From NCBI GenBank assembly GCA_030522375.1, contig CP130488.1, positions 442 to 64,441 of the forward strand: a stretch of DNA of 64,000 nucleotides, read 5' to 3'. Source of the stretch: Methanosuratincola petrocarbonis. Its GTDB lineage: Archaea; Thermoproteota; Methanomethylicia; Methanomethylicales; Methanomethylicaceae. The notes below the pieces were generated by a model. That model was not told where the DNA came from and did no database searches. It saw only the letters and a program-made list of their open reading frames with translations. Positions 22,097 through 64,000 of the stretch are shown in pieces. The translations under genes were made by a program, and so were the position numbers. The stretch's first letter is position 1, and the number at the start of each line of letters is the position of its first letter.

Positions 22097-22181
22097 TTTA
22101 TTTGCTTAATCGCTTGTTTTCTTGCTCGATCTGCCTTCCAGATCCGCTTCAAATTGAGGACCCGCCCGTTCGTCGAAGAGG

Positions 22182-25273: not shown

Positions 25274-25308
25274 GGGCTGCCTGGTGAGGATACGGGAGAT
25301 CTTATCTT

Positions 25309-42646: not shown

Positions 42647-42661
42647 AAATACCGATCGAAC

Positions 42662-42913: not shown

Positions 42914-43125
42914 GGACGCCTCGAGGAGAGCAGTTACTGCTGGACTCTTGTGCCTAACAACGGTCTATGCCTGACCAAAAAAGGCTCATAAATCCATGTA
43001 ATACAAACCTCCCAAAGAATCAGCCAACTTCAGTGCTCAATCCTCCCTTGCATTTTCAATACCGCGCAAGGCGCCAACTTTCATATATACTCTAAACCAC
43101 TACTTTGATCCGAGGAGTGCCCCAA

Positions 43126-44184
43126 ATGAAAGCCCTCGTCCTCTCTGGCGGCAAAGGCACGCGCCTCCGCCCCCTGACCTTCACGATAGCGAAGCAGCTC
43201 ATCCCGGTGGCGAACCGCCCAATCCTCGGCTACGTCCTCGACCAGGTGGTCCAGGCGGGGATAAGGGAAGCCGGCATAATCATCGCCCCCGAGACCGGGC
43301 AGTACGTGAAGGAATACGTGAAGGATGGCTCCGAGTGGGGTCTCTCCGTGGAGTACATCCCCCAGGAGCCACTCGGCCTCGCCCACGCGGTGAAGACCGC
43401 CCAGCCGTTCCTCGGAGATTCGGACTTCGTGATGTGCCTCGGGGACAACCTGCAGGGGAAGGGCATCGCTGGGCTCGTCAGGCGCTTCCGCGACGAAAAA
43501 CTGGACTGCCTCATCCTCCTCAAGGAGGTCGCAGAGCCGCAGCGCTTCGGGATCGCAGCCCTATCACCGGACGGGCGCGTCATCAGGGTCGTCGAGAAGC
43601 CCAAGGACCCGCCGAGCAACCTCGCAGTAGTCGGCACCTATGTCTTCTCCCCCAGGGTCCACGAAGCCATAACGCGGATAAAGCCCTCCTGGCGCGGCGA
43701 GCTCGAGATCACGGACGCGATCCAGGCGATGATCGACATGGGTCTCCGGGTCGGCGCAGAGGTCCTTGACTCCTGGTGGCTCGACACGGGCAAGAAGGAC
43801 GACATCCTCACCGCGAACTCGATCGTCCTCGACGAGTACCTGGAGCGCCGGGTCGAGGGCGAAGTCATCGACAGCGTTGTGGAAGGCAGGGTGCGCATAG
43901 CGCCTGGCGCCAAGGTCATCGGCAGCAGGGTCAGGGGCCCGTCGGTGATAGGAAAGGGGGCGGTCGTGGAGCGGTCCTGCGTCGGTCCCTACTCGAGCAT
44001 CGGCGACGGGGCGAGGGTGGCGGACTCCTGCGTCGAGAATGTGGTTCTGATGGAGTGCTCCTCGGTCGAGGGCGTGGAGCGCCTGGAGGACAGCCTCGTC
44101 GGGAAGCACTCGAGGATCAGGAAGAACTGCCGGGGGAGGTCCGTGAAGGTCACGGTGGGGGACTACTCAGAGGTTGATGTTTAA
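43126..44184 (+). CDS. rmlA: Glucose-1-phosphate thymidylyltransferase, long archaeal form with a C-terminal hexapeptide-repeat domain.
   Basis: The N-terminus MKALVLSGGKGTRLRPLTFTIAKQLIPVANRPIL is a sugar nucleotidyltransferase motif. The C-terminus has LbH repeats. SD GGAGTG lies upstream. Downstream are rmlD, rmlC and rmlB. Confidence 0.85.
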   Translation: MKALVLSGGKGTRLRPLTFTIAKQLIPVANRPILGYVLDQVVQAGIREAGIIIAPETGQYVKEYVKDGSEWGLSVEYIPQEPLGLAHAVKTAQPFLGDSDFVMCLGDNLQGKGIAGLVRRFRDEKLDCLILLKEVAEPQRFGIAALSPDGRVIRVVEKPKDPPSNLAVVGTYVFSPRVHEAITRIKPSWRGELEITDAIQAMIDMGLRVGAEVLDSWWLDTGKKDDILTANSIVLDEYLERRVEGEVIDSVVEGRVRIAPGAKVIGSRVRGPSVIGKGAVVERSCVGPYSSIGDGARVADSCVENVVLMECSSVEGVERLEDSLVGKHSRIRKNCRGRSVKVTVGDYSEVDV

Positions 44185-44213
44185 TAATTTACTGTTGGCG
44201 GGCTGGTTCTCTG

Positions 44214-45152
44214 ATGAGGTTTCTGATCTCTGGCGCGGGCGGTCTGCTGGGCTCAAAGCTCGCCGAGGTCGCGATCGCCGCAGGTCATGTTGTCTTCGCC
44301 GGGTACTCCAGCGCCCCGCCTCCCTGCGGCACCCCGGTCCGCCTGGACCTGACCGACCCAGATTCAATCAAGAGCGCCCTGCGCGCATCCGCCCCCGACG
44401 TGGTCTTCCACTGCGCGGCTCTTACGGATGTGGACAGGTGCGAAGCTGAGAGGGAGCTCGCCCTGAGGATCAATGCGGAGGGGACCGAGCGGTTCGCGAA
44501 ATCCGCCTCCGAATTCGCCCCGCTCTTCGTCTACGTCTCCACCGATTACGTTTTCGACGGATCCCGCGGGATGTACTCCGAGTCTGACCAGGTCAGCCCT
44601 GTCAACTTCTACGGGTACACGAAGCTGCTGGGGGAGAGGCACGCCCTCTCCTGCTCGAAAAAAGCCCTGGTGGCGCGCACGAGCGTGATTTACGGCGCCT
44701 GCCCCTCGAGGGGGAAAGTGAACTTCGCCCTCTGGATAACCGAATCCCTCCTCCAATCGAGACCCGTCGCCCTGCTCACCGATCAGTGGGTCTCTCCGAC
44801 CCTGAACTCCAGCCTCGCCAGGATGCTCCTCGAAGCCGCTGAGCGCGGTCTGACTGGGGTCTATCACCTGGCAGGAGCCTCGCGCGTCTCCAGGTACGAA
44901 TTCGGCCTCTCCTTGGCCAGGGCGTTTGGCTTCAAGTTGGGACTAGGGGGGATCAACGGGGGAGGGGACTCGGCGCTTAAGCCGGCACTCATGTCTGACT
45001 TTGTCGGCAAGTGGGTCGCGAGGCGCCCCAGGGACTCTTCGCTGGACGTTTCGAAGGCTTCATCCACCCTCGACGAGAAGCCGCTCCCCTTGGGGCTGTC
45101 AATTGAAGAGTTTAAAAAGGAATACTTGCAGATAAAGCGTGGTGTTCCCTGA
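44214..45152 (+). CDS. rmlD: dTDP-4-dehydrorhamnose reductase.
   Basis: The N-terminus MRFLISGAGGLLGSKL is a Rossmann motif and YGYTK carries the catalytic Tyr/Lys. The gene is in the operon position. Confidence 0.75.
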   Translation: MRFLISGAGGLLGSKLAEVAIAAGHVVFAGYSSAPPPCGTPVRLDLTDPDSIKSALRASAPDVVFHCAALTDVDRCEAERELALRINAEGTERFAKSASEFAPLFVYVSTDYVFDGSRGMYSESDQVSPVNFYGYTKLLGERHALSCSKKALVARTSVIYGACPSRGKVNFALWITESLLQSRPVALLTDQWVSPTLNSSLARMLLEAAERGLTGVYHLAGASRVSRYEFGLSLARAFGFKLGLGGINGGGDSALKPALMSDFVGKWVARRPRDSSLDVSKASSTLDEKPLPLGLSIEEFKKEYLQIKRGVP

Positions 45153-45656
45153 ATGCTTCCTGGCATCGTTGTGAAGCCCCTCAGCCGGCATGTGGACGAG
45201 CGGGGAAACTTTACAGAGATCTTCCGATCGGACATGAAGGATATCTTGGGAGACGACACAATCGTCCAGTCGAACCTCTCCTATTCCTACCCGGGCGTGA
45301 AGAGGGCCTGGCACAGGCACGAGCGGGGTCAGGTCGACTACTTCGTCTGCATAGGTGGGGCAATAAAGATCTGCGCTTACGACGACGCGACCGCCGAGCT
45401 CGACGAGATCGTCTCCTCCGCAGCTTCCCTCCAGGTCGTGAGGATCCCGGGTCATTACTGGCACGGCTTCAAGGTGGTGGGGAGCGAGCCAGCCACGCTG
45501 GTCTACTTCACGACCAGGCTCTACGACTACAAGTCGCCTGACGAGCTGAGGCGCCCTTGGGATGACCCGACCGTTGTCCCGAAGTCGATAAACGGGAAGG
45601 TCAACGACCCCCGCGTCGGGAAGCCCTGGGACTGGGACTTCGTTCTGTACAAGTGA
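45153..45656 (+). CDS. rmlC: dTDP-4-dehydrorhamnose 3,5-epimerase (cupin).
   Basis: The protein is 167 aa. It carries the motif DERGNFTEIFR, a His-containing active-site region (WHRHE) and RIPGHYWHGF. Confidence 0.8.
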   Translation: MLPGIVVKPLSRHVDERGNFTEIFRSDMKDILGDDTIVQSNLSYSYPGVKRAWHRHERGQVDYFVCIGGAIKICAYDDATAELDEIVSSAASLQVVRIPGHYWHGFKVVGSEPATLVYFTTRLYDYKSPDELRRPWDDPTVVPKSINGKVNDPRVGKPWDWDFVLYK

Positions 45657-45670
45657 CGGGCGTGAGTCGC

Positions 45671-46672
45671 ATGCGGCTGCTGGTCACCGGGGGTCTTGGA
45701 TTCATAGGCAGCAACTTCATAAGGCTCTGCCTCCGGATCCCGGAGTGCGAAGTCATAAACCTCGACAACCTCTCATACGGGTCGAATGAGTCCAACCTGA
45801 GGGAGCTCGCCGGCGATCCCCGCTACACATTCGTGAGGGGAGACATCTGCGACCCAAACTCGATCCGCCGGGCTTTGGTCATGGGCGTTGAAGCGGTGGT
45901 CAACTTCGCCGCCGAGACCCATGTGGACAGGAGCATCTCCGACCCCCTTAGGTTCTACAGGACGAACGTGGGCGGGGTTCTGAACATCCTTGAGTGCATA
46001 AGGGAGTGCGGTCGCGACATCCGCTTTCTACAGGTAGGGACTGACGAGAGCTACGGCGACATCCTCGAAGGCTCCTTCTCAGAGGGCGATCGCCTGTCCC
46101 CATCCTCGCCATACTCTGCCTCGAAGGCTTCCGCGGACCTCTTTGTCCTCGCGTACCGACGCACCTATGGTTTGGATGCCCTGGTGACGAGGTGCACGAA
46201 CAACTTCGGCCCGTTCCAGTTCCCGGAGAAGCTTGTCCCCAAGACGATCATACGTGCGCTCAATGGGCTCAAGATACCTATTTACGGCTCCGGGAGGAAC
46301 GTGAGGGACTGGATCTTCGTCGAGGACCACTGCGAGGCGGTCATGGTTGCACTTTTGCGCGGGAAGCCCGGGGAGATCTATAATGTCTCTGCAGGGAACG
46401 AACTCGACAACCTCTCCCTGGTCAAGAAGATCCTCTGCATCCTTGGTCGTGGCGAATCGCTGATAGAGCATGTTGAGGACAGGCCCGGCCACGACCTACG
46501 TTACAGCCTTGACTCATCAAAGGCTAGAAGGGATCTGGGGTGGCATCCGCGCCACGGCTTCGATGAAGCCCTCAAAAAGACTGTGGAGTGGTATGTGAAT
46601 AACGAGTGGTGGTGGCGCCCGCTCGCTGACGAGAGGATGCTCAGCCCTGCGCCTTGGAAATTGAAATGGTGA
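45671..46672 (+). CDS. rmlB: dTDP-glucose 4,6-dehydratase.
   Basis: Motifs MRLLVTGGLGFIGSNFIR and YSASKASAD (YxxxK) are present. The TDE catalytic triad is represented by VGTDESYG. Confidence 0.85.
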   Translation: MRLLVTGGLGFIGSNFIRLCLRIPECEVINLDNLSYGSNESNLRELAGDPRYTFVRGDICDPNSIRRALVMGVEAVVNFAAETHVDRSISDPLRFYRTNVGGVLNILECIRECGRDIRFLQVGTDESYGDILEGSFSEGDRLSPSSPYSASKASADLFVLAYRRTYGLDALVTRCTNNFGPFQFPEKLVPKTIIRALNGLKIPIYGSGRNVRDWIFVEDHCEAVMVALLRGKPGEIYNVSAGNELDNLSLVKKILCILGRGESLIEHVEDRPGHDLRYSLDSSKARRDLGWHPRHGFDEALKKTVEWYVNNEWWWRPLADERMLSPAPWKLKW

Positions 46673-47092
46673 TTGCGAGTTACAAATGACTTTCTACAAT
46701 TGATGGTATGCTATCTTAAAGACGAGCGTTCTCGCAATTTTCATACCGATTGAAAAGCGCCGTTTGGTGCCTGTTGCGTCGCGTGCCGCTGCGAGTGCTC
46801 TTGGTTCGAGTTCGCTGTGCAATATTGAGATTTCTGGTCAAGAAATTTCTCCGAGTATCAGTCCTAGTCAACATATCCGACAAAGGCAAGGCGTCCCGCT
46901 TACTCGGCACTATCGAGCAACAAGCTGGGGAGATGGGGCATAGAGATGCCCCACTAGATGCCTCACTGGAGGGACGCCCTCCGCCGCTACCTGGAAGAGA
47001 AAGGGCACTTGAAGCCTCTTTCTGTCGCTTGATCCCTTCCGAAAGCCTCGGGCACCGTTCGTTTTTTAAGAGGGTCGCCCTCTACATTTTTT

Positions 47093-48130
47093 ATGGCGCA
47101 GCCCAAAGTCTCTGTACTGTGGGTCAACTACAACGGCATGCACATTCGGGACATCCTGCTGGAGTCCTTGCAAGCCATAGACAGTTTGAATTACGAAAAC
47201 TATGAGCTCATCGCAATCGACAACGGGTCCAATGACGGAAGCTACGTGCTTATACGCGACCAGTTCAAAAGGATGCGCTGCGAAAGGCGGTTGATCAGGC
47301 TCGACAGGAACCTAGGTTTCACGGGAGGGAACAATGTTGCCTACAGGGCACGATCGCCCGAAACAAAGTACGTCCTGCTCGTGAACAACGACGCCGTGGC
47401 TTACCCGGACAGCCTTCGCGAGATCGTAGAGAGGATGGACTTAGACAGCACGGTCGGAGCAGCCCAGGGCATCACGGTGGACTACTCCACAGGCGCCGTC
47501 GACACGGCGGGCGAGATGGTGGATGAGGTCTTGGAGGTCCATTCTCTTTTCAACGGCTGTCCGCCAGGATCCGTCAAGTCAGCTATCGAGATCACTTATA
47601 CCAATGGCGCCTTCGCAGTCTACCGCGTGTCGTCTGTACATGCGGCGCAGGGCGACCGACTATTCGACAATATCTTTGCATACTACGATGACAACCTCCT
47701 GGGGTTGAAACTATGGAACTGCGGCTTCAAGTCGGTCTCCTTCCCAGTCTTAGCCGCCAGGCACAGGAAGAGCTCCTCTTTCAGGAGATACAGCGAGGCA
47801 ATGATTTATTTGACGATAAGGAATTGCCTCTTTCTCAATGAGATAGCCAACAGCAGGTACCGCAAATTGAACCGGCTCTTCCCGCTGAAAATCATGCTGA
47901 AGCATATTGGTGGCAACCCTTCTGAGACTTTTTCCCTCTCTTTCAAGGCAGCAAGGGACGGCTTTTTAATGGGCAAGAAAACATTATCGGAGGAAGGCAT
48001 GGTGGACCTATACAAGGCGCCAATCGTGAGCCTTGAGCCCCCTCTGGCACTTTTGCGCCTCCTTCTTCCAGGAAGGTTCACAAGAGGGATCCTGGAAAGG
48101 AGAATAAAAGAAACAATCAATAGCTCATAA
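47093..48130 (+). CDS. Family 2 glycosyltransferase.
   Basis: The N-terminus VSVLWVNYNGMHIRDILLESL...LIAIDNGSNDGS matches the GT2 N-terminal fold, with a DxD-like YYDDN. Confidence 0.7.
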   Translation: MAQPKVSVLWVNYNGMHIRDILLESLQAIDSLNYENYELIAIDNGSNDGSYVLIRDQFKRMRCERRLIRLDRNLGFTGGNNVAYRARSPETKYVLLVNNDAVAYPDSLREIVERMDLDSTVGAAQGITVDYSTGAVDTAGEMVDEVLEVHSLFNGCPPGSVKSAIEITYTNGAFAVYRVSSVHAAQGDRLFDNIFAYYDDNLLGLKLWNCGFKSVSFPVLAARHRKSSSFRRYSEAMIYLTIRNCLFLNEIANSRYRKLNRLFPLKIMLKHIGGNPSETFSLSFKAARDGFLMGKKTLSEEGMVDLYKAPIVSLEPPLALLRLLLPGRFTRGILERRIKETINSS

Positions 48131-48191
48131 ATAACATGAATCCAAATTGTTTCAACCAAACTTAAAATATAAGTTTTACTAATTCTCTGCC

Positions 48192-50136: not shown

Positions 50137-50775
50137 AAACATCAAATTTTTTAGCTATATTTTTAATTTTTCCATAAAAATTTTATACTTAAAAAAATTC
50201 ATTAAGTGCGCTGAATATAATCTTATGTCGATTAAGCAATTTCCCGTTATGTTACAGGTAGAATTTTCATCAAAAACATTCCATTAGCCATATTAATTCC
50301 AAGCTTGGCAGATCTTCAGGCTTATTCGAATCCCAATTTGTACTCCAAGACTCTGCGGCCATCTCGACTTTATCTTTAGCTCAGGCGCCGCAGGTTGCCC
50401 TTTTTTGTTCAGCCACTCTTTCTTGCTTGTGCTTCATTCTTTTCCAAACCAAGTTAAAATTATTAAATTAGTTAAATTTATTAACTAAATTATAATTAAA
50501 TATCCTGGCAGCGAGTTCCTTTCAGGAGGCTAGAAAATGGCTAATGGTCCAAATTTGCTGTTTGAGGGCAATTGCCTTCCTGAGGACGAGTGGTTCCCGC
50601 CCGAGTTGCTACATCGTTTCGGCTATCCTTTTTTGCCGATTCGCGAGTCGCAGTATGAGCCGTGGGGCTAGGGCCCGTGGGCTGAAGAGATCGATTACGA
50701 GTTGGGAGGGCTGATCGAGGATAGTGTTGACCGCAAAAGGGGCGATCCTCCGAAGACATCGACTATCGTGGGGCC

Positions 50776-51480
50776 GTGGAGGATCCGCTGGCCTACTATG
50801 TCCCATACCCGTCTGACGCCTCGAGCCGCAAAGGGTTTGGGATATATTTCAGGGTCAAAAAGATGCTCAGCGACTTCAAGCGGTTCCATTCCAAGCTCCC
50901 GAGGTTCATCCCGCCCGATTTCTCCTGGCGCGTCTATGTGACGACCGTGTTCTGGCACGAGATGGCGCACCATGTGGTCCAAGATGCCTGGCTGATCCAG
51001 GAAGGGAACAAGAGCCAGCGTTCCTCCTCCTCTCCTTCCTCTTCATCCCCTTCAGACTACTCCGGGTACACTCTCATGCCCCGCCAGGACGAGGAAGGGT
51101 TCTGCGAGTACATGGCGTTCACGGCGGTCGAGAGGAACTTGGGTCTGCCCCCGAAGGTAATTCGCAACATCCCGATGCGGCACATGCTTTACGCCAGGAT
51201 CTTCTACCCGCATCCAAGGCCGAAGATCCCCCTGCTCCCCGGGAGGTCGCCGATGAAGCCCGATTACTTCCGCATATACGCCCTCTGCGCCCTGTACGAT
51301 CACTGGGGGAGGGGCTCGGATCCCGTCTATCGCCCTTGCGTCACCAGGACCGCCTCGGGAGCCGTCGGCCCGCTGTGGAACCCGCTGTGGGAAGCCCACC
51401 AGCGCGGAGCCCCGGTTATAACATTGGGGCCGGGCGAAGGGGACCTCATCTGGGACAGGATCTTCGTGACAGAGCGTTGA
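50776..51480 (+). CDS. Hypothetical protein with an HExxH motif (WHEMAHH), a putative metallopeptidase-like protein. Upstream frames (50537-50775) look like decayed 5' sequence.
   Basis: The ORF is 234 aa and has a GTG start. The HEMAHH motif follows a hydrophobic stretch. The near-repeats EEIDYELGGLIED and EDIDYRGAVEDP occur in different frames upstream. Confidence 0.3.
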   Translation: MEDPLAYYVPYPSDASSRKGFGIYFRVKKMLSDFKRFHSKLPRFIPPDFSWRVYVTTVFWHEMAHHVVQDAWLIQEGNKSQRSSSSPSSSSPSDYSGYTLMPRQDEEGFCEYMAFTAVERNLGLPPKVIRNIPMRHMLYARIFYPHPRPKIPLLPGRSPMKPDYFRIYALCALYDHWGRGSDPVYRPCVTRTASGAVGPLWNPLWEAHQRGAPVITLGPGEGDLIWDRIFVTER

Positions 51481-51730
51481 TATCCCCCCATGGCCAGCGC
51501 CTCGCCCAGGCAAGGAGCGTCGAGGAGATCGTCTATATCGAGCCCGCTCATGATCCCATAAAGCGCATCTACCAAGTGATCAGGTCCCCCTCAGACATTC
51601 GACCACCTTGAGGGTGGGATGTTGGGGTCTATGGCGTGGTGGGGCAGAGAGGGGACGGTCTCGAGCCTGGGCGCGGCGTCCCGCATTCGAAGTTGGCTCA
51701 AATAAAAACTAATCAAATCCATATCATAAT

Positions 51731-51774
51731 TTTTAAAAACTGTGAATACTATATTTTTATTGCAGTTGATTGAT
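51731..51774 (+). promoter_or_regulatory. AT-rich promoter-like region (ttttaaaaa / tactatatttttattg) immediately upstream of the giant surface-protein gene.
   Basis: Local GC collapses here. The TATA-like element lies ~20-25 nt before the ATG at 51775, consistent with a leaderless archaeal mRNA. Confidence 0.3.
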
Positions 51775-54700
51775 ATGGATAATTTTTCTCGAAATCTTAG
51801 ACTTTTATGCATTGCTCTTCTTGTTATCGTCGCCTTGTCCGCTTCTTCCCCATCGCCTCTCAAGGCAGGCACCATAGTCGTGGAGGACTACGGGTATTGG
51901 GATGCGGATGGGGTCTACCATAGTTCCTCCACCCCGATCCAGTCCGCAATAAATTCGGCATCATCGGGGGATGTGATCCTGCTGGTGGGCGCCTCTTACA
52001 CAGAGAATGTTGAGGTCAACAAGACAGTCACCATCCGCGGGGCATCTTCCCATGTGATTAGCCCTGCCAACCCGAGCCTGCCCACCTTCAACATCTCTTC
52101 AGCCAACTCGATTCTGTACGATCTGTATGTGAATGGAGGTAGCGTCGCCTTCGCAGTGTGGGGCAACTCCATAACACTCACAAACAACACCGCCATAGGT
52201 GGCGACGTCGGCTTCTACGTGGCGCCTTTTAATACTGGCAACTGCACCCTCACCAACAACAGGGCTTTCAACTCCACCACTACGGGATACCAAGTGTGGA
52301 GCCCAAACAACACCCTCATAGGCAACAACGCCACCTGGTGCAACTACTCCTTCTCGGTCTACAACGACAACACCCTCATAGGCAACCTGGCTGATCAATG
52401 CGAGCACGGCTTCTTTATCTATCAAGGCAGCTCAACACTCACAAACAACACCGCCATAGGTGGCGACGTCGGCTTCTACGTGGCGCCTTTTAATACTGGC
52501 AACTGCACCCTCACCAACAACAGGGCTTTCAACTCCACCACTACGGGATACCAAGTGTGGAGCCCAAACAACACCCTCATAGGCAACAACGCCACCTGGT
52601 GCAACTACTCCTTCTCGGTCTACAACGACAACACCCTCATAGGCAACCTGGCTGATCAATGCGAGCACGGCTTCTTTATCTATCAAGGCAGCTCAACACT
52701 CACAAACAACACCGCCATAGGTGGCGACGTCGGCTTCTACGTGGCGCCTTTTAATACTGGCAACTGCACCCTCACCAACAACAGGGCTTTCAACTCCACA
52801 TACGCCGGCTACTATATCTCTAGCATAAACAACACCCTCAACTCAAATGAGGCTTCTTGGGGAGCGGGGGTCGGCTTCTTCCTGAACCAGTCGATTAACA
52901 ACACCGTCACTATGAATTATGCCTCAGGCAACTCGGGAGGAGGCGTCCGGCTGGAGAACTGCTCCGGCAACGCATTGACATGGAACGACTTTATAAATCC
53001 CCTCAACTCTTACGACGACTCCCTCAACCTGTGGGATTGGAACTACTTCAGCGACTACTCGGGCGTCGACAGGGACGGCGACGGGGCGGGCGACACCCCC
53101 TACAGCGTGCCTGGGGGCTCCAACCTTGATCTGCACCCGCGGATCCATGACAATGACCTCCCAACCGTCGACTCCGTCTTGCCTGCGAACGGGTCCTTCC
53201 ACCCTTACGTCAGCACGATCTCAGCCCAGTACTTTGATACGACCTCCAATGTCAACTTCTCGCTGTGCAGGCTCATCCTGGACAATGTGGATGTAACTCT
53301 GAACGCCTCGTTTGCCACCTACAGCATGTCATTCTCGGGCACCCTGGGTGAGGGCACCCACTCCGTAAGGATGTATCTCGAGGACTTTTATGGGAACGCG
53401 ATGTGGCACAACTGGTCATTTGGAGTCGACGCAACACCCCCCTCCATCCATCCCCTGTCCCCTACGAACGGCACTCTTGTCGCGGATAGCACCCCGGCAC
53501 TGTGTTTTTGCTACTCCGACAGCCTCTCAGGGATCTCCCCCCTGTCCGTAAGGCTGTTCCTCGACGGGGTCAATGTCACTTCTTCTGCGTCGATCAATGG
53601 CACCATCGCATGCTACCTGCCTTCATCCCCTCTAAGCGACGGGTCGCACAACGCCACGATCTCCGTTGCCGACGCCGTAGGCAATAACGCCTCCTCGATC
53701 GTCTTCTTCACCGTGGATGCCACTCCGCCTTCAATTTCCCTGATCTCGCCCACGAACTCCGCCTACCCATCAACCCCTCTCATCAACTCATCAGTTACGG
53801 ATGCCCTCTCCGGCGTCCACACGGTCCTCGCAGAGATCGACGGCTCCTACAACCTCACCCTCGCGCTAGCAGGGGGCTTCTACACCGCCCTTCTCGACCT
53901 GCCCGACGGCCACCACTACGTCCGCATCATAGCCAACGACACCGTAGGTAACACTGCGTCCAGCCCCTCGGTCCACTTCACCGTCGACACCACCCCGCCC
54001 TCGATTGCGATAGCCTACCCCCAGAACTTGACCTATGGTTGCTCGTCAATGAAAATAAATGCCTTGGTCTCGGACGCCTTAAGCCCAGTCCACACCGTCC
54101 TCGCAGAGATCGACGGCTCCTACAACCTCACCCTCGTCCTCGATGACGACTTTTATGTCTCTGCAGATGTCGAACTCGCTGACGGCGTGCACTGCGTCCG
54201 GGTGATCGCAAATGACACGCTTGGGAATGTCGACAGCACCACGCTGGTGTACTTCACTGTGGACACGACCCCTCCGTCAATTGATATCAATCACCCGATC
54301 CCCTCATCTCTGTACTATGGCTCAGCCGAAATGCTGATAAACGCCTCTGTCTCGGATGCCCTCTCCGGCGTCCACACGGTCCTCGCAGAGCTGAACGGGG
54401 CTCAGAATGTCACCCTGCTTCCGGAAGGCGCCTTCTTCGTCTCGAAAGTCACCCTCGCCGAGGGCAATTATACCCTGATGATCATAGCCAACGATACGGT
54501 GGGCAACACTGCCCAGGCTGATTATTGCGGCGTCTTCTACATAGACCTCACACCGCCTTCTATCGCTGTGGAGGCGCCTGCCAACGCCACCTACGCCTCA
54601 AATCAAATAACCATTAACGCCTCCGCATACGATCCTATCTCGGGCACCCATACCGTGATCGCCGAGGTCGACGGGTCGCATAACTACACGATGCTCGTGA

Positions 54701-56877
54701 GCAGCCCACACTACACCGCCCTTCTCGACCTGCCCGACGGCCACCACTACGTCCGCATCATAGCCAACGACACCGTAGGTAACACTGCGTCCAGCCCCTC
54801 GGTCCACTTCACCGTCGACACCACCCCGCCGTCTGTAACCATCAACGCCCCTTCAGACTCGGCTGTCTACGCAAGCAGCGAGGTGCTGATAAACGTCACA
54901 GCGACCGACAGCCTGTCCGCAATCCACGCCGTGGTCGCAGAGCTGAACGGTGATCAGAACGTCACCCTGCTTCCGGACGGTACTGCATTCGTAGGATCGT
55001 GCTCCCTTTCAGATGGAGCGCACGTCCTCCGCATTTACGCGAACGACACCGCCGGAAACACCGACTCCACCCAGTCCGTAAGCTTCGCAATAGACACTGC
55101 GCCACCCTCGGTCTCGATCATCTCTCCGGCAAGCGGCTCGTCCTACCCGTTCTTGCCAAAGATAGGTGTGGTGGCTGACGATGCCTTCTCCGGCGTCCAC
55201 ACCGTCCTCGCAGAGATCGACGGCTCCTACAACCTCACCCTCGCGCTAGCAGGGGGCTTCTACACCGGATCTATACCGCCTCCGCTCCCAGACGGCCACC
55301 ACTACGTCCGCGTGATAGCCAACGACACCGTAGGGAACACTGCTGTCGAGTCTTCTGCATTCTTGCTAGATGCCTCGCCACCAACGCTCACCGTCACTTC
55401 TCCCTCGCCCGCATCGTGCTCGGGGAATGGCTCAGTCACCATATCCGCAACATTCTCGGACGGGGTTTCTGCCGTGTCAGTTGCGAGCATCAGTCTGGAC
55501 GGGACCGAGCTGAGGCCCAGTGCGTCCGTCACGGCTACCGATCTATCAATAGAGGTCGCGCTGAGCGACGGCCAGCATGACCTGTCAATCACAGTCACGG
55601 ATGCGCTCGGGAACTCTGCGACCGCCTCTTTCCGATTCTGCGTCGACACCTGCCCTCCCGTCCTCGCGTCAACCTCGCTTGAAAACGGGACCTTCGTAAG
55701 AGACCAGAATGTCACCATCGACTTCGCGTTCCAGGACGCGGTCTCTGGGGTAGACGGATCGACCGCCTCCGCCTCGATCGACGGCTATCCGGCGGCTCTG
55801 GTCGTAGAGGGAACGCCAGGGGGCGCCAACCTCTCCTTGTCTGCCCTCCTCGATGAAGGCGAGCATCTGATCGAGGTTTCCGTCGCCGACGCTGCCGGGA
55901 ACCGCGCCACCGCCGCCCTAAGGATAACCGTCGACCTATCCCCGCCCCAAGTGGTCGCCCTACAGCCCGAAGCAGGGACGGTTGTCAGCGGGTTCTCTGT
56001 GATATCGGCTGAGTTCATTGATGACCATGGGGTTGACCCGCGCTCGGTGAGGGTTTTTGTAGATGGACTGGACTTGACGACCTTCTGTTTTGCATCCCCG
56101 TCTGGGTTCAGCCTCAACACGGTGCTTCCAGATGGGGAGCACCGTGTGCGAGTGGCGGCAGGCGACCTGGCTGGCAATATCGTATACGAAGAATGGTCCT
56201 TCACTATAGATGCCACGCCCCCCTACGTCTCCATTCTCTCCCCCTTGAACAACACTGCCACCAACAACACCCCCCTGATCTCCTTCTCATTCCACGACAG
56301 CGTTTCCGGAATCAACGCCTCATCTGCATCCCTCTTCCTCGACGGCGCTGATCTGACCCAATACGCCAACATCTCGAGCTCCGCGATCTCGTACGCGCCA
56401 TCCCTGCCACTCTCAGAAGGTATGCATCAAGTGCTCTTCGAGATCAGCGACCTCGCTGGAAACACCAAATCTGTCATGGTCGTTTTTGCAGTGGACACTA
56501 TCCCGCCAGCCCACCCCACCTCCGCCTTGTCAAACTACTCGGCTGTATCGGCTGGCCATTTCCAGTTCACTGCCTCGCTGCCAGGGGAGGCAACCCCGGT
56601 GAATCTCTCCCTGTATGTCGATGGCGTTGACTGCACGCCGAGCGCAGTAGTGGAAGGCGATCGGATCATCTGTACCATCGATCTGACCGAGGGTATCCAC
56701 AGTATTACGCTTGAAGTGGAGGACGCAGCTGGCAATGCCGCCTCCTCGACCTGGATCGTCAATGCAGTATCCCCGACATTCGGATCGGGTCTTGGTCAGC
56801 TCGCTATAGCCGCTGCTGTCGTGGTAGCTGCCGCAATGGGGGCGGTCGCATTGCTGCGGCTGAGGCACAAGAAATAG
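51775..56877 (+). CDS. Giant secreted surface (S-layer or adhesin-like) glycoprotein. It has a signal peptide, NosD-like parallel beta-helix repeats, ~14 Ig-like VDxTPPS modules and a C-terminal TM anchor with a basic tail.
   Basis: The N-terminus is MDNFSRNLRLLCIALLVIVALSASSPSPLKA. PbH1-type repeats read NNTAIGGDVGFYVAPFNTGNCTLTNN. Modules of ~95 aa are each bounded by F(T)VDTTPPS. The C-terminus is LAIAAAVVVAAAMGAVALLRLRHKK. N-x-S/T sequons occur at ~5 per 87-aa repeat. Confidence 0.8.
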   Translation: MDNFSRNLRLLCIALLVIVALSASSPSPLKAGTIVVEDYGYWDADGVYHSSSTPIQSAINSASSGDVILLVGASYTENVEVNKTVTIRGASSHVISPANPSLPTFNISSANSILYDLYVNGGSVAFAVWGNSITLTNNTAIGGDVGFYVAPFNTGNCTLTNNRAFNSTTTGYQVWSPNNTLIGNNATWCNYSFSVYNDNTLIGNLADQCEHGFFIYQGSSTLTNNTAIGGDVGFYVAPFNTGNCTLTNNRAFNSTTTGYQVWSPNNTLIGNNATWCNYSFSVYNDNTLIGNLADQCEHGFFIYQGSSTLTNNTAIGGDVGFYVAPFNTGNCTLTNNRAFNSTYAGYYISSINNTLNSNEASWGAGVGFFLNQSINNTVTMNYASGNSGGGVRLENCSGNALTWNDFINPLNSYDDSLNLWDWNYFSDYSGVDRDGDGAGDTPYSVPGGSNLDLHPRIHDNDLPTVDSVLPANGSFHPYVSTISAQYFDTTSNVNFSLCRLILDNVDVTLNASFATYSMSFSGTLGEGTHSVRMYLEDFYGNAMWHNWSFGVDATPPSIHPLSPTNGTLVADSTPALCFCYSDSLSGISPLSVRLFLDGVNVTSSASINGTIACYLPSSPLSDGSHNATISVADAVGNNASSIVFFTVDATPPSISLISPTNSAYPSTPLINSSVTDALSGVHTVLAEIDGSYNLTLALAGGFYTALLDLPDGHHYVRIIANDTVGNTASSPSVHFTVDTTPPSIAIAYPQNLTYGCSSMKINALVSDALSPVHTVLAEIDGSYNLTLVLDDDFYVSADVELADGVHCVRVIANDTLGNVDSTTLVYFTVDTTPPSIDINHPIPSSLYYGSAEMLINASVSDALSGVHTVLAELNGAQNVTLLPEGAFFVSKVTLAEGNYTLMIIANDTVGNTAQADYCGVFYIDLTPPSIAVEAPANATYASNQITINASAYDPISGTHTVIAEVDGSHNYTMLVSSPHYTALLDLPDGHHYVRIIANDTVGNTASSPSVHFTVDTTPPSVTINAPSDSAVYASSEVLINVTATDSLSAIHAVVAELNGDQNVTLLPDGTAFVGSCSLSDGAHVLRIYANDTAGNTDSTQSVSFAIDTAPPSVSIISPASGSSYPFLPKIGVVADDAFSGVHTVLAEIDGSYNLTLALAGGFYTGSIPPPLPDGHHYVRVIANDTVGNTAVESSAFLLDASPPTLTVTSPSPASCSGNGSVTISATFSDGVSAVSVASISLDGTELRPSASVTATDLSIEVALSDGQHDLSITVTDALGNSATASFRFCVDTCPPVLASTSLENGTFVRDQNVTIDFAFQDAVSGVDGSTASASIDGYPAALVVEGTPGGANLSLSALLDEGEHLIEVSVADAAGNRATAALRITVDLSPPQVVALQPEAGTVVSGFSVISAEFIDDHGVDPRSVRVFVDGLDLTTFCFASPSGFSLNTVLPDGEHRVRVAAGDLAGNIVYEEWSFTIDATPPYVSILSPLNNTATNNTPLISFSFHDSVSGINASSASLFLDGADLTQYANISSSAISYAPSLPLSEGMHQVLFEISDLAGNTKSVMVVFAVDTIPPAHPTSALSNYSAVSAGHFQFTASLPGEATPVNLSLYVDGVDCTPSAVVEGDRIICTIDLTEGIHSITLEVEDAAGNAASSTWIVNAVSPTFGSGLGQLAIAAAVVVAAAMGAVALLRLRHKK
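52180..52800 (+). repeat. Perfect tandem 261-bp (87-aa) repeat inside the surface-protein gene: two identical copies and a partial third.
   Basis: Segments 52180-52440 and 52441-52701 are identical by eye. The third copy begins at 52702 and diverges at ~52800. Antisense track ORFs 52099-52425 and 52432-52686 translate identically. Confidence 0.9.
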
Positions 56878-57168
56878 CCCCCCTTTTTTCCGTCCGGGAG
56901 CGAGCCCTCCGGCAAGAAGCCTGCTGGGGGCGCTCCCCATCGCCTTCCGGTTCCAGGTTGCCGTGCCGAGCGCTCACGCGCCTCCTTTTAAACTGCCTGG
57001 CGTCCCATTCATGCATCCTGTAAGTGTGCTTCGCCTCTCAGGCCCACCGGGGATAGGGTGCAAGGCTCCGCGATTTGCTTGAGCCCCCGCAAGGGATCCT
57101 CCCTCAATTCTGCCCTCCTCCTTCTGGACCGGCGCCTGCTTTAAGAGACCCTCTCGTTCATTGTCCTT

Positions 57169-57750
57169 ATGGGATTGGAACTGCTCGGAGGTCTGTCCTT
57201 GGGTAAGCGTGTATTCCTGATCACGGGCTCGCCTGGGATAGGCAAGACTACCGCCCTCAGGCGGGCTGTCGATCTCGTCAGGGGGCAGGGGTTCGCTGTC
57301 GGGGGGATGGTCACTCAGGAGGTCCGAGGAGCTGGCGGCGAGAGGGTGGGCTTTGAGATCCTTGACCTCTCCACGGGGATCCGGGGGTGGCTAGCCCGAG
57401 CCTGCCAGGGACCAGGTCCGAGGATTGGGAGGTACATCGTGGACATCGGGGCGCTGGAGCGAATAGGCGCAGCCAGCATCCTGGGCGCGGTCGCCAGCTC
57501 GGACGTGATCGCAATCGACGAGATCGGCCCTATGGAGCTCCTCTCCGAAGGGTTCAGGGCAGCCGTGCTGAGGGCAGTCGGCTGCGGGAAGCCCGTTGTA
57601 GCCACCGTCCACTTCAGGTCCAGCGACCCGCTCGTCGGATCCGTCAAGGCGAGGGAAGACTCGTCACTCTTCGTGCTGAGTGCTGAGAACCGTGGCTCGA
57701 TCCCGGGCGTGATCTTGGGGCAGGTCCTCTCCGCCCTAAGGGGCTTCTGA
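57169..57750 (+). CDS. THEP1/NTPase_1-family nucleoside-triphosphatase.
   Basis: A Walker A motif VFLITGSPGIGKTTALRR is present and a Walker B motif VIAIDEIGPMEL follows. The protein is ~190 aa. Confidence 0.7.
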   Translation: MGLELLGGLSLGKRVFLITGSPGIGKTTALRRAVDLVRGQGFAVGGMVTQEVRGAGGERVGFEILDLSTGIRGWLARACQGPGPRIGRYIVDIGALERIGAASILGAVASSDVIAIDEIGPMELLSEGFRAAVLRAVGCGKPVVATVHFRSSDPLVGSVKAREDSSLFVLSAENRGSIPGVILGQVLSALRGF

Positions 57751-57977
57751 TTCCCTCTTTTCCCGCTCATTAAGCCCTATCCTGACAACAAGGGCTCCGC
57801 AGTCCAACCTCTGGATGGTCATAAGCGGTTGGGCAACCCCTCGATGCTGCATTCGTCGAGTTCCAGAAATCGCCTCTATGCTTCAGGGGTTTTCTTAAAT
57901 GCTGAACGCCCGCATGGAGAGCTTCATTTTTACCCAAGATGGCGCAGAAAGCCCGCGCCCTTCAGCGGTGGGCTGTG

Positions 57978-58607
57978 TCACTGGCTGGTCGCCTCCTCGA
58001 GTTCCTTCTCAAACCGCTCTTTAAAGAGTTTGACTTTCCTGAGGTCGGTCATCCCAATGGACGCATACTCCGTACCCCCCCTCTGCACAATCCTCTCCAA
58101 GAAGTCAATATAGCTTTCAAGGGCGTGGCGCTTGCATAAGGAAACGAGCTCGCTGAGGCTCACTGCCCCAGTCGCCAGCAATGCCAATATGTCAATCCTG
58201 TCCTTCTCCCCTTTGACCGACAGCTCGCGGTCCATTGCCGCCCTTAGCTTCAGCACTAGTAGGAGCTCTGGGGCGAGCACCCTAAAGCCCTCGATGCTTC
58301 GGACATTCATGCTAATCAGGTTCGCTGGGATCCCAAAATCCGAATAGTGGAGCACGTATATGTCAACATCCGTAAATCCTTGCTTCAACTCGTATTTTTT
58401 TAAGCGGGGGTTTTTTGCGACCGGGTGCTCTCTCCTGAGCCGGGCGAGCTCCTCGAAGTCGACTATTATATCGATGTCCTTCGACTTGAGCGCCCTCGTG
58501 TAGAGCCAGACCGCCCACCCGCCGATCAGTATGAATGAGTGCTTTCTTCTCAGTTCCAGAAGCACTCTCCAACTTTCCTCTGTTATGTTTGGGTGGTAGA
58601 ATGCCAT
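57978..58607 (-). CDS. Minimal nucleotidyltransferase-fold protein (AbiEii/DUF1814-like).
   Basis: The motif FILIGGWAVWLYTRALKSKDIDIIV matches G[GS]x9-13DxD of the nucleotidyltransferase fold. The gene lies immediately downstream of, and abuts, an HTH gene (58608 vs 58607). Confidence 0.5.
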   Translation of the reverse strand: MAFYHPNITEESWRVLLELRRKHSFILIGGWAVWLYTRALKSKDIDIIVDFEELARLRREHPVAKNPRLKKYELKQGFTDVDIYVLHYSDFGIPANLISMNVRSIEGFRVLAPELLLVLKLRAAMDRELSVKGEKDRIDILALLATGAVSLSELVSLCKRHALESYIDFLERIVQRGGTEYASIGMTDLRKVKLFKERFEKELEEATSQ

Positions 58608-59183
58608 TTAGGTCATCCTGTCTAGCTCGTTGATGAACTCTTGCGCATACCAGGCTGGTATGTTCCAGAGGTCAACATATATCTGCGCTAGGGTTGCCCT
58701 GCCCAGCTTTTTCAGGTGCACGTCTGGCTCCATCACGATCAAGTTGCACCTTTCTTTTGGCGGAGAAGGCTCTCCGAACCTCGATATGAATTGCCCTGCG
58801 TCGCCGTAGACGTAGACTTCGCTATAGTCAGCCGGAACATATCCGAAGCGGAGCTTGAAGGCAGTGAAGGCAGTGAAGATAGCTTCGGGAGGGACCATAC
58901 CTTCTATCTCTTGGACTGGCATCTGAAGACTTTTCCGGTAAACCACTTGCGGTTCTAGCCGCCTGATGCTGCACCAGAAGAGAAGGATCTTTTTCGGGTT
59001 TTTTATATTGATCCCCTTGCGACTAATGTCTATCGCCCCCATCTCCTTAAGCGGCCTCAGGCTATGGCTGACGGTACTGGAAGGTACACCGGTCGCCTCG
59101 GAGAGCGATCTCACATTAAAATGGTAGGCCTTTTCCTCGAAGACCTTCTCCAGGATCTCCCTAAAGACGGGCTCTCCTTTCAT
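58608..59183 (-). CDS. Winged-HTH domain protein, a putative AbiEi-like partner or transcriptional regulator.
   Basis: The N-terminus FNVRSLSEATGVPSSTVSHSLRPLKEMGAI reads as an HTH. The protein is 191 aa and is translationally adjacent to the nucleotidyltransferase-fold gene. Confidence 0.45.
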   Translation of the reverse strand: MKGEPVFREILEKVFEEKAYHFNVRSLSEATGVPSSTVSHSLRPLKEMGAIDISRKGINIKNPKKILLFWCSIRRLEPQVVYRKSLQMPVQEIEGMVPPEAIFTAFTAFKLRFGYVPADYSEVYVYGDAGQFISRFGEPSPPKERCNLIVMEPDVHLKKLGRATLAQIYVDLWNIPAWYAQEFINELDRMT

Positions 59184-59584
59184 AAGTAACCAAAAAAATT
59201 GGACAATATATAAACCTATCTGTTATAAAATTGGACACATTTTTCGAACGTCACTCGTGCCGATGGGCTCTTTTGGACAACCCATATCTCAACCTCAGTT
59301 AGAGACAAAGCGGTCTGTTCTGGTGCAGCTCGTCAAAAGTGCGGCAATTCTTAATGTCCCATGCCCACTTTTTCCGATAACCGCCAATTCTTATTCCCAA
59401 CATAGTCTGGATGCCCTCCTTTCCTCTGGAGGAGAGTCAACTCTGAGCTTTTGGCAACATCTGTTTGCTCTAAGAGCTTTCAGGATCGATTGCGGTCTTC
59501 AGCTTGCTTAATGGGCGTGCATCCAGGCGTCCGTAGCCCTCTAGCATTTATTATAGCTCTTCGAATCAATATCGTGGATAGGCG

Positions 59585-60469: not shown

Positions 60470-60760
60470 TCTCGAATCCTGCCCGTCCCAAGAGCGCACT
60501 CCCCTGCCCTTCCCGACACGCCTGGTCCTGTTCTAGCCCCCTGCTTAGTCCTTGGCATTGAAATGCACGCCCTCCGTTATGGGCCCCATCGAAATTTCCC
60601 TTGTGGGTGATCCATCCCTTGAGGCTTGCCCGACCATTGAGGGATATATGGGCTTTGTTTTCGAAACGTGGTCCTGTCAGCCCCCTGGCATATGAATCCA
60701 TGCTGTGCGGCTCGCCGGCTCACACCGGATCGGCTACTGGTTCAAATCGGGCCTTTTCCG

Positions 60761-62101: not shown

Positions 62102-62925
62102 ATGTATTATCCAGAAAACATTTTTGCTTAAATTTGTTTCCTATGTTATGTTTAGATCCCTATCCCAAAAGCGCAGAGCGTTACCTGTCCAACAAGAGGT
62201 GCAGCGAAGCGCCTGCCCTATAGTTCGCCTCCCCTCCATCCACCTGGAGAAACATCCCCGGCAGCCGCGCCGCCACTTGAGCGCGAGGGGATGTGCGGGC
62301 ACCTCGTAGATGAGGCGGTAAGCAAGCCCGCGTCGTTGAGACACATACGCGCCAAGATCTCAAAAAGCATTTGCCCTGTCCGGGCTCATTACATGTTGTC
62401 TGTAGGGCTTCTGTAGATGCCGAGGGAAGGCGTTTGGTCGCCTCGACTCCTGGCGACCTGCCTAATCCAACCCGTCGTCGTTGCCCCTGCTAGGGCAGTG
62501 GATGGATTGAAGGTAAGCAAGCCTGAAGGTTTACTCGAGAGCCTTCACAACTTTGAGCAGGAATCAGGCCGCCCTCCTTGTTCTCCTAGTCCTTGCAATC
62601 GGAGCGATCTTTGTGAGCTGTGCCGGATACGGCTCCTTCCTGAATGACCCGCTGACGCTTTAGCGCTGTCGACATGCCGCCTGGCTCGAGCACCTCCAAC
62701 TCATGCCGATCCTCTCAATAAGCCTTCCAGGGCGCCCACTGCGGTTGTTTATATAAGCCGAAAGCCCCTTTCACTTGCAAATGCTGCCCTATGTCAACGG
62801 CGTAGCGCGCCAAATTGACCTGGAACGAATTTTTTGGGAATCTATAAATACGAAAAAAAATTATTTTTTTTATAATCTATAGAGGTGCTTCCAAATTCCA
62901 GACTGTAAAAAATCTATTTTTGCCT

Positions 62926-64000
62926 GACTCTCGCGCTACTGATCGCCTTCCAGCTGCCGCCCGGCGCTGTTGCCGCCCCTGCTTCTCTCCAGTACCACAG
63001 CCCAATCGAGATCGTAGGCAACTCTGCCTTCACCTCAGCCAACGGCGTGGTCGGGGGCAGCGGGACAGCCAGCGATCCCTACATAATCGAAGGTTATGCT
63101 ATAAGCGCAAACCTAACCCCGGGGATCGCCATATCAAACACTAACGCCTACTTCGTGATCAGGAACTGCAACATACAGGGCACTTGGCTCTACTCAGGGA
63201 TAATGCTTCAGAACGCCACAAACGGGAGGGTGGAGAACAACACCATCACGGGGTGCCTCGACGGGATTATGATCTACTATTCCTCGAAGATTGACGTCCT
63301 GAACAACTCGGTCTCAGACAGCTCCTACGGCGTCCGGTCCGAGTATTCGGGGAACAACACGATCTCAGGGAACACTTTCACTGACAACGCAATAGGCATC
63401 TTCCTTTCGTCAACAAGCAGTGGTAGCAACGTCTCTTATAATGTGTTTACGAACAGCTCGCAGGGAGTCTACCTCTTCTCGTCAGGCAGCAACACCGTCT
63501 CAAACAACAGGTTGACCTACACTGACGAAGGGATCTCCCTCTTCTACTCGGACAACAACGCTGTCAAAAACAACCTGCTCGTCAGCACAACCGAGGGCAT
63601 CTCCCTCTTCTTCTCCTCCAACAACATAGTGACTGGGAACACCATAGTCGAGGGGCCGAAATCGATCAATGTTGATCCCCTATCGACCGGAAACACTATC
63701 AACAACAACACGTTCTTGGACGAGCTGGTCAAGCAGAACGCGTCCCTTTCACTGCAGTCATCCGCAGCCTCAACGGGCGTGGGGACCGCGGTGACGCTCA
63801 GCGGTTCGCTGGTTCCCGCCCAGGCTGGAACAGTCTCGATCTACTTCTCGATCAACGGATCCGCTGCGACCTTCCTAGCGAATGCGACGCTCTCCGGGGG
63901 TTCCTTCTCCAAAACATTAAACCTTAGCCAGGTAGGCACATACTCGTTTTATGCCTACTGGGCTGGCAACGATAACTACAACCCTGCGACCTCCCCGACG
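62926..64000 (+). CDS. Secreted parallel beta-helix (NosD/PbH1-repeat) surface protein, 3'-partial (continues beyond the window). The start codon is unclear: no in-frame ATG/GTG/TTG, and a TTG lies at 62920 in the +1 frame.
   Basis: The frame is open from 62914 to the window end. A signal-like region reads LTLALLIAFQLPPGAVAAPA. Repeated ...NNTI(T/S)GN... beta-helix turns occur with very many N-x-S/T sequons. An AT-rich TATA-like region lies at 62840-62900. Confidence 0.65.

Follow-up and report, generated by a model that had tools for sequence, protein, structure and literature searches.

What kind of protein is encoded by the long, internally repeated gene at positions 51775 to 56877 of the plus strand in a 64,000-nucleotide (nt) stretch of Methanosuratincola petrocarbonis DNA (contig CP130488.1; this whole stretch is called the window throughout), and how did parts of that gene come to be identical to one another? 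The sequence-only reading, made from the letters of the window and a list of its open reading frames (ORFs), had described a giant modular surface glycoprotein with NosD-like beta-helix repeats, immunoglobulin (Ig)-like modules and a rapidly evolving repeat number, and had proposed a surface-layer (S-layer), sheath or adhesin role. That interpretation was largely right, although it overstates the change in repeat number. The present analysis gives somewhat better than an even chance to an adhesin-like surface fibril, anchored in the membrane, in which a beta-helix head is carried on an Ig stalk. In addition, comparison with related genomes reveals concerted evolution among the Ig modules of the gene.

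Three orthologous loci are referred to throughout. L001, from a metagenome-assembled genome (MAG) of the same species, has a gene 98.3% identical to that of the window at the nucleotide level and one 261-bp unit shorter; L002 (ERZ511474) is 89.5% identical in nucleotides and has no perfect tandem repeat; and L003, also from a MAG, encodes a protein 54% identical in amino acids (aa), with a 279-bp repeat in 2.6 copies at 92% identity and one extra Ig module. L003 (GCA_039630845.1) bears the same NCBI species name; given its orthologue at 54%, a nucleoside triphosphatase (NTPase) at 64% identity and a synonymous divergence (dS) of 0.85-1.7 in the rml genes, it probably represents a different species-level lineage.

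The ORF spans 51742..56877 on the plus strand and encodes 1711 aa when read from the GTG at 51742, whereas the ATG at 51775 gives 1700 aa plus the stop. The sequence-only reading had placed 1711 aa at 51775; the ORF is real, but that length requires the GTG. Because the ATG at 51775 is common to L001 and L002, it appears to be the best start, and the protein is best taken as 1700 aa. The database model of the window's own product (P0127) begins at a TTG at 51760, and the closest database proteins carry as their sole annotation 'Ig-like domain-containing protein' of Candidatus Methanosuratincola petrocarbonis. The 51700..51774 segment is nearly identical across the window, L001 and L002 and is AT-rich in a window of 55% G+C overall, making it a candidate promoter. 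A scan for sigma-70 promoters and intrinsic terminators returned background counts only, such models not being meaningful for an archaeon. The gene and its upstream region are as follows.

51700..51774, plus strand: AT-rich upstream region, promoter candidate with TTTTTAAAAA and ATATTTTTATT boxes (conservation in orthologous loci)
51775..56877, plus strand: coding sequence of the surface protein (ORF; start conserved in L001 and L002)

Within the protein, six consecutive parts were distinguished.

51775..51867, plus strand: signal-peptide-like N-terminus, MDNFSRNLR, then hydrophobic LLCIALLVIVAL, then SASSPSPLKA before G (sequence)
51868..53064, plus strand: predicted right-handed parallel beta-helix head, N-terminal cap and about 17 coils (AlphaFold2, Pfam)
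53065..53157, plus strand: junction VDRDGDGAGDTPYSVPGGSNLDLHPRIHDND (conservation; AlphaFold2 confidence low)
53158..56775, plus strand: Ig-like modules M1-M13 (Pfam, NCBIfam, module alignment, AlphaFold2, Foldseek)
56791..56856, plus strand: C-terminal transmembrane (TM) helix LGQLAIAAAVVVAAAMGAVALL (AlphaFold2 helix; kept in orthologues)
56857..56874, plus strand: predicted basic cytoplasmic tail RLRHKK (sequence)

Pfam profiles divide the protein in the same manner, with NosD and Beta_helix on the N-terminal third and Big_13 (227.8 bits, 12 stretches), Big_7 and Big_3_3 on the remainder, all above their gathering cut-offs. Among NCBIfam models, the parallel beta-helix repeat exceeded its cut-off and the Ca_tandemer adhesin repeat (NF033510), matched in 4 stretches, scored 110 bits where the cut-off is 50. 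The NosD-like beta-helix and the Ig-like folds anticipated from the letters were both returned by AlphaFold2 (AF2), with a predicted local distance difference test (pLDDT) score of 86-89 in models resting on shallow alignments of 11-12 sequences. The head model (aa 34-570 in GTG numbering, 12 homologues, mean pLDDT 86.4) shows a right-handed beta-helix of about 17 coils, after which comes the first Ig-like module, and each 87-aa tandem unit corresponds to exactly four coils, or 12 strands. On this model, a unit gained or lost would lengthen or shorten the helix by about 2 nm without disrupting the fold. The junction VDRDGDGAGDTPYSVPGGSNLDLHPRIHDND, together with the preceding WDWNYFSDYSG, forms a NosD-type beta-helix end and is the best conserved stretch of the family.

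The structural neighbours of the beta-helix include capsule depolymerases (score 36.5), AlgE4 (32.3), NosD (31.5) and the adhesin PfbA (26.9), and Foldseek agrees with these. As the best neighbours are capsule depolymerases, a GH87 glucanase, PL6 lyases and the alginate epimerases AlgE4 and AlgG, the protein might be a surface-displayed carbohydrate-active enzyme (CAZyme), that is, a polysaccharide lyase, hydrolase or epimerase with the Ig modules as spacers. Such an enzyme is highly improbable here. The matches, at identities of 9-17%, reflect the shared fold, and no CAZyme-type Pfam family scored beyond the generic Beta_helix and NosD. The units include two exact copies, orthologues differ in the number of units and in the length of the helix, and the invariant residues of the helix are N/G positions of the coil consensus only; neither a conserved acidic cluster nor irregular groove-forming loops were seen in it. 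A helix of variable length in which only the coil consensus is conserved argues against a catalytic site, and the protein is not taken to be an enzyme.

NosD itself is the periplasmic beta-helix component of NosDFY, which acts in the maturation of nitrous oxide (N2O) reductase. A NosD function was considered and rejected: the NCBIfam model NosD_copper_fam scored 63.8 bits against a cut-off of 300, and no nosZ, nosF, nosY or nosL was present among the window ORFs examined. Unlike NosD, the protein carries 13 Ig modules and a TM anchor, and the similarity is one of fold and repeat type, not of function.

The stalk consists of 13 Ig-like modules in tandem, each of 89-96 aa, with M1-M7 beginning at 53158, 53425, 53713, 53983, 54259, 54541 and 54814 and M8-M13 at 55090, 55366, 55642, 55930, 56206 and 56494. 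All 13 share the consensus VDxTPPS...D..SGV...DG...L.DG.H......D..GN. About 14 such modules bounded by VDxTPPS had been expected; the Ig-like modules are present, but they number 13 and two borders deviate, since 11 border motifs fit [VIL]Dx[TSAC]PP, one reads VDTIPPA and the first is degenerate. M3-M8 are 55-75% identical to one another in nucleotides, compared to about 50% among the other modules, and appear to constitute a younger subfamily. A profile built from the 13 modules matches the BIg domains of SiiE, a giant adhesin of Salmonella (2yn3), with an E value of 1.3e-12. In the AF2 model of the last 503 aa (pLDDT 88.7), five consecutive Ig-like sandwiches precede a linker and a TM helix; the final Ig strand stops at residue 468 of the model, a 9-residue linker of low confidence follows, and the helix occupies residues 478-501. 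The best Foldseek matches of this model are extended Ig rods, namely titin, carcinoembryonic antigen (CEA), the GhpA neck, cadherins and SbsB.

The signal peptide, the C-terminal TM anchor and the basic tail that had been read from the letters were all found, AF2 giving the TM helix and the tail reading RLRHKK. The N-terminus was judged by eye to be a probable signal peptide, and the (V/L/I)KAGT junction at its end is kept in the homologues P0002 and P0003. Together, these three features indicate a surface-anchored protein, as far as topology can be read from the sequence. The mature ectodomain would have a mass of about 171 kDa before glycans and is strongly acidic (pI about 4.1; 151 Asp+Glu and 30 Lys+Arg). 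An anchoring signal of the PGF-CTERM/archaeosortase kind was also looked for and rejected, as no NCBIfam sorting-signal model matched at E <= 0.1 and the PTF of the window protein is not kept in P0002 or P0003.

The second part of the question concerns the repeats, which fall into a tandem array in the head and dispersed segments in the stalk.

52173..52799, plus strand: tandem array, 261 bp x 2.4 (Tandem Repeats Finder, self-match, AF2)
53824..53887, plus strand: 64-nt segment in M3 (exact repeat)
53880..53999, plus strand: 120-nt segment, copy 1, from the end of M3 into the start of M4 (exact repeat)
54711..54830, plus strand: 120-nt segment, copy 2, from the end of M6 into the start of M7 (exact repeat)
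55204..55267, plus strand: 64-nt segment in M8 (exact repeat)

Tandem Repeats Finder reports a period of 261 bp in 2.4 copies with 100% matches at 52173-52799, and 52173-52538 is identical to 52434-52799 over 366 nt. The two perfect copies and partial third that had been described are thus borne out; in the protein they correspond to 87-aa units at 52174-52434 and 52435-52695 and a partial third at 52696-52800. The minus-strand ORFs 52099-52425 and 52432-52686, which encode identical peptides, are mirror images of the array and not genes. In the stalk, 53880-53999 is identical to 54711-54830 over 120 nt. The sequence-only reading had equated 53881-53998 with 54711-54828, which identifies a real repeat in a register that is off by one base and literally gives 90 mismatches; its second pair, 53821-53887 and 55201-55267, contains one mismatch across its full length and is exact over 64 nt (53824-53887 and 55204-55267). 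Other exact repeats within the gene measure 49, 40 and 38 nt. When the codons of the gene were shuffled 100 times, exact repeats reached 17 nt at most, and the intragenic repeats are therefore real and well beyond chance.

Comparison among orthologues indicates how this identity arose. The unit starts of L002 are those of the window (aa 134, 221 and 313), while its two full units share only 73% identity. Such divergence between units laid out in the same way means that the 2.4-unit layout is ancestral and that the perfect copies of the window reflect homogenisation, not a new expansion. Both window units are 81% identical to the first unit of L002 and 75% to the second; being nearer the first, they indicate that the second unit of the window was overwritten by the first, or lost and re-duplicated. 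With respect to the proposed rapid evolution of repeat number, the layout is shared with L002 and the recent change is homogenisation, although shorter versions do exist in MAG-derived sequences. Versions one unit shorter (1.4 units) were found in four such sequences (P0001 on two contigs, P0122 and P0124); they could be collapsed repeats or a true deletion allele, and many MAG copies of the gene are truncated at contig ends.

These four independent MAG-derived sequences of the species also raise the question of whether the second perfect copy was created in assembly while the true gene carries 1.4 units, all the more so as perfect identity across 366 nt can be checked only with reads. This is improbable: short-read assemblers collapse, and never expand, perfect repeats longer than the k-mer, and the window copy lies on a contig of 1,538,194 bp, matching in size the complete genome of strain LWZ-6 (PMC12244365). 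In addition, the independent assembly of L002 has 2.4 units at the same positions, which at 73% identity are easy to assemble, and L003 has 2.6 units at 92%, making at least two full units the ancestral layout.

Similar exchange is evident in the stalk. The M3 and M6 tails are 100% identical to each other within the window, 100% within L001 and 99.2% within L002, whereas the same segments differ between the window and L002 at 13-14 of 120 nt (88-89% identity). Paralogous segments are thus 99-100% identical within genomes and 88-89% identical between them, which confirms by comparison the intragenic recombination that had been proposed from the repeats and constitutes concerted evolution among the Ig modules. 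A further tract of 162 nt in M8 of L001 is 99.4% identical to M3, compared to 89% for its window equivalent, and turns GSIPPPLPDG into ALLDLPDG; this tract is the product of an M3-to-M8 conversion and sets apart strains that differ by only about 1-2%. The ratio of nonsynonymous to synonymous substitution rates (dN/dS) is about 0.33 over the gene and 0.2-0.57 across its regions, compared to 0.04-0.17 in the neighbouring rml genes, a pattern of relaxed purifying selection such as exposed proteins often show. Positive selection was considered and rejected, no region of the gene having a dN/dS above 1. Across orthologues the junction, M1 and M11-M13 plus the anchor are conserved, and the length of the beta-helix and the count of middle modules are variable.

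The protein contains 60 N-x-S/T sequons, compared to 25.9 +/- 4.4 in residue shuffles (maximum 43), and their density of 35.3 per 1000 aa is nine times that of 36 other window ORFs (3.9 per 1000). Counting upheld the extreme density that had been noted in the repeats (roughly one per 15-20 residues): the tandem-repeat region has 1 sequon per 14.7 residues, and all four protein regions are enriched. It is probable that the protein is N-glycosylated, as its sequons suggest. The sequon Asn of the coils adjoins the conserved ladder Asn (as in TLTNNTA and GNNAT) and, for that reason, probably faces outward.

What such a protein might do at the cell surface can be outlined as follows. A Sec-type signal peptide would export the chain, and the C-terminal TM helix with its RLRHKK tail would hold it in the cytoplasmic membrane as a type I protein. 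The 13 modules, of SiiE/Ca-tandemer type, would form an extended stalk, probably stiffened by Ca2+ and about 45-50 nm long if fully extended, tipped at its distal end by the beta-helix, which has about 17 coils and a length of about 8 nm. The acidic ectodomain probably carries many N-glycans, made in part by the products of the neighbouring glycan genes. Beta-helices are a fold that typically binds glycans, and the head may bind glycans or other surfaces, which would fit the aggregates formed by this coccus. The repeats are open to homologous recombination: gene conversion keeps parts of modules and whole four-coil units of the beta-helix identical, and unequal exchange could add or remove whole units or modules with the fold unbroken. 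Cells of Methanosuratincola petrocarbonis strain LWZ-6 are non-motile cocci, measuring 0.5-1.0 um, that gather into aggregates and are lysed by 0.01% sodium dodecyl sulfate (SDS) (PMC12244365). A sheath protein, the third of the roles originally proposed, is unlikely in a coccus (PMC12244365).

The adhesin-like reading is preferred because paralogues of the same build coexist, because stalk length varies widely among close relatives, and because bacterial adhesin repeats are the solved proteins nearest to the Ig modules in sequence. The coexisting paralogues and the relatives of 560-1800 aa fit a repertoire of display proteins. An N-terminal beta-helix, Ig-like repeats and a membrane anchor also make up the commonest build of adhesin-like proteins (ALPs) in Methanobrevibacter and Methanosphaera (PMC11532034). 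Like the window protein, methanogen ALPs combine a right-handed beta-helix with tandem Ig-like ('archaeal big') repeats C-terminal to it and a single TM anchor, their intraprotein repeats are highly similar, and several paralogues occur per genome. However, they belong to Methanobacteriales with pseudomurein walls and 40 or more ALPs, whereas the present organism is a thermophilic coccus of the Thermoproteota. Published ALPs more often have an N-terminal anchor (PMC11532034), in contrast to the C-terminal anchor with basic tail found here, and Pfam places their modules in PF16640, PF02369 or PF02368, as opposed to Big_13/Ca_tandemer. The likeness is one of architecture, and adhesion is putative for both.

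The giant bacterial adhesins SiiE, LapA and MpIBP provide a second comparison. They share with the window protein tandem Ig-like modules of about 90 aa with the motif L-x-DG-x-(H/Y)...D-x-x-GN, repeats that are near-identical in DNA, and a stalk that projects a distal binding region (putative here). The module alignment shows that conserved Asp residues are present in the Ig modules, and by analogy with SiiE-type repeats the stalk is probably stiffened by Ca2+. However, SiiE, LapA and MpIBP leave the cell by type I secretion and are kept in the outer membrane, whereas the window protein combines a predicted Sec signal peptide with a C-terminal TM anchor, and, unlike them, it has a beta-helix head and dense N-glycosylation sequons.

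Several points weigh against an adhesin. The role is suggested by analogy of architecture, and at 1700 aa the protein is probably among the largest of a 1.54-Mb genome. Its acidity, its richness in sequons and its TM anchor with a lysine-ending basic tail are also traits of the recently described Ig-rich S-layer proteins of other Thermoproteota (bioRxiv 10.64898/2026.08.21.746120). The sequon excess of the beta-helix lies partly in the NNT coil consensus and may be partly structural, and neither AglB nor an unannotated ORF big enough to be AglB is present in the 64-kb window.

The traits shared with S-layer proteins suggest that the protein could be a PySLP-like S-layer (canopy) protein in which a beta-helix head replaces the lattice-forming Ig domains. 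The Pyrobaculum S-layer consists of one Ig-rich protein of 292 kDa with a TM helix and a lysine-ending basic tail (bioRxiv 10.64898/2026.08.21.746120). PySLP comes from the same phylum and is likewise a giant single polypeptide with an Ig-like stalk, a C-terminal TM helix and a lysine-ending basic tail; moreover, its N-x-S/T sites lie near putative glycan densities and its Ig domain number varies between lineages, as here. The tandem Ig array, TM helix and tail thus fit its anchoring plan, although the tails of some orthologues end in R or P and not in lysine. Homologues of PySLP have been reported in another order of Methanomethylicia (bioRxiv 10.64898/2026.08.21.746120), and the family of the window protein is confined to Methanomethylicia among the GTDB (Genome Taxonomy Database) representatives. 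The large size, acidity and sequon richness of the protein, the conserved AT-rich upstream region and the lysis of cells in 0.01% SDS, as expected of a protein-only envelope, point in the same direction.

Nevertheless, an S-layer protein of this kind is unlikely. PySLP is Ig-like throughout, with a lattice core and crown and a conserved beta-hairpin before the TM helix, whereas here the distal head is a beta-helix and the AF2 model lacks the membrane-proximal beta-hairpin, the 9-residue linker leading straight into the TM helix. The two-domain build equals that of adhesin-like proteins, and the variation of stalk length among close relatives and the coexistence of paralogues would be unusual for a lattice of fixed geometry. 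Sequence and profile searches of Pfam and the Protein Data Bank (PDB) returned no match to known archaeal S-layer families (Pfam S-layer models, DUF1608, csg, SlaA/SlaB, Nitrosopumilus) or to solved archaeal S-layer proteins. A profile of the last module and anchor matched Methanosuratincola-like sequences only and no Thermoproteales or Culexarchaeales proteins, a search that returned short fragments only and did not include a direct sequence comparison with PySLP. An S-layer lattice protein is consequently considered less likely than an adhesin.

The preferred adhesin-like protein and its putative sugars can also be examined through the genomic context. The adjacent glycan cluster that had been reported is indeed present upstream, from about 28.9 to 48.1 kb, and comprises a UDP-sugar dehydrogenase, several GT4 and GT2 transferases, a DegT aminotransferase, an acetyltransferase, a 2-epimerase and rmlA/D/C/B. 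Two features of the neighbourhood bear directly on the protein.

43105..48130, plus strand: rmlA-, rmlD-, rmlC- and rmlB-like genes and a GT2 glycosyltransferase at the end of the glycan cluster (Pfam)
62909..64000, plus strand: smaller, similarly built paralogue, truncated at the end of the window (Pfam, sequence)

The rml genes adjoin the orthologue in L001 and L003 as well as in the window. Between the window and L001, the glycoprotein gene and everything downstream (51775-64000) are 98.9% identical, in contrast to the upstream region (43081-51700), where rmlA/D/C/B are 83.6% identical (dS 0.4-0.7) and the other part 77.6%. A strain-variable glycan island thus appears to end at the 5' side of the gene, so that the same protein would probably carry different sugars in different strains. 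This arrangement is relevant to another possibility, rather unlikely in our view, that the protein is the main envelope (S-layer/canopy) protein of the Methanosuratincola lineage, with its height and surface reset by gene conversion and by gain and loss of units. If so, it would be paired with a strain-variable glycan island upstream (78-84% identity, compared to 99% for the gene), and surface diversity would arise mainly through glycans and through stalk and head length, possibly under pressure from viruses.

Several other observations concern the region upstream of the gene. Between the GT2 gene and the glycoprotein gene, the overlapping ORFs 48192-49337 and 49075-50136 correspond to one multi-TM protein of 542 aa in L001 (6706-8334), and a frameshift near 49.24-49.28 kb of the window marks either a pseudogene or a sequencing error. 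A Pfam scan gave no match for this protein (48192-50136) or for the ORFs just upstream of the gene; it could be an uncharacterised membrane glycosyltransferase or polymerase. ORFs 50776-51480 and 51336-51611 match a 347-aa gene model of L001 in three different frames, and region 50776-51611 looks degenerate or mis-modelled in both genomes. The 1.7 kb between the last GT4 gene and rmlA (41400-43100) holds small ORFs only; 41622-41892 within it matches a fragment of an epimerase/dehydratase gene of L002 and may be a gene remnant. Two UDP-N-acetylglucosamine 2-epimerase paralogues occur in the window (5450-6523 and 32045-33124), and the 20010-27968 region, upstream of the glycan genes, encodes DUF1616, CarboxypepD_reg + DUF4129, DUF4350, MoxR-type AAA_3 ATPase and DUF58 proteins.

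The smaller paralogue starts near 62.95 kb, about 6 kb downstream of the gene, and is available as a full copy in L001 (20903-22339). It consists of a signal peptide, NosD/Beta_helix, Big_3_5 Ig-like domains, a TM helix and a KKRK tail. The cap at its N-terminus is like those of the relatives P0006 and P0007, and the C-terminal halves of P0006 and P0007, as well as the P0006 junction, resemble the main protein. Because the paralogue has a cap like that of P0006 and P0006 has a junction and C-terminal modules like those of the main protein, the comparison indicates that parts have been exchanged within the family.

When one genome per GTDB species was scanned with the junction and first Ig module as the query, full-length matches were found in Methanosuratincola, Methanomethylicus, two 'Nitrososphaerota' MAGs and one contig binned as bacterium. 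The family thus appears confined to Methanomethylicia among GTDB representatives, the bacterial-binned contig aside. That member, L005 (LVAA01000151.1), lies on a 1.75-kb contig in a Syntrophobacterales bin and is 47% identical over the junction and first Ig module; its bacterial assignment is suspected to be a binning error. On its own, the beta-helix end motif picks up true proteobacterial NosD as well. Proteins of the family vary in length between about 560 and 1800 aa, but each consists of a signal peptide, a beta-helix, Ig modules, a TM helix and a basic tail; two paralogues (L006 and L009) come from a single related MAG.

The protein is a well-documented case of a known kind of archaeal surface protein and does not represent a new class of system. 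Its gene nevertheless offers a clear case in nature of concerted evolution within a single archaeal gene, and of a beta-helix able to change its length in four-coil steps. Because the gene breaks or collapses in short-read MAGs, repeat numbers derived from MAGs are unreliable. Methanosuratincola was among the first methanogens from outside the Euryarchaeota to be cultured, and the papers that could be searched yielded no account of its cell envelope or S-layer. For this organism, the gene is the obvious first candidate for the major exposed surface protein, whether adhesin or S-layer.

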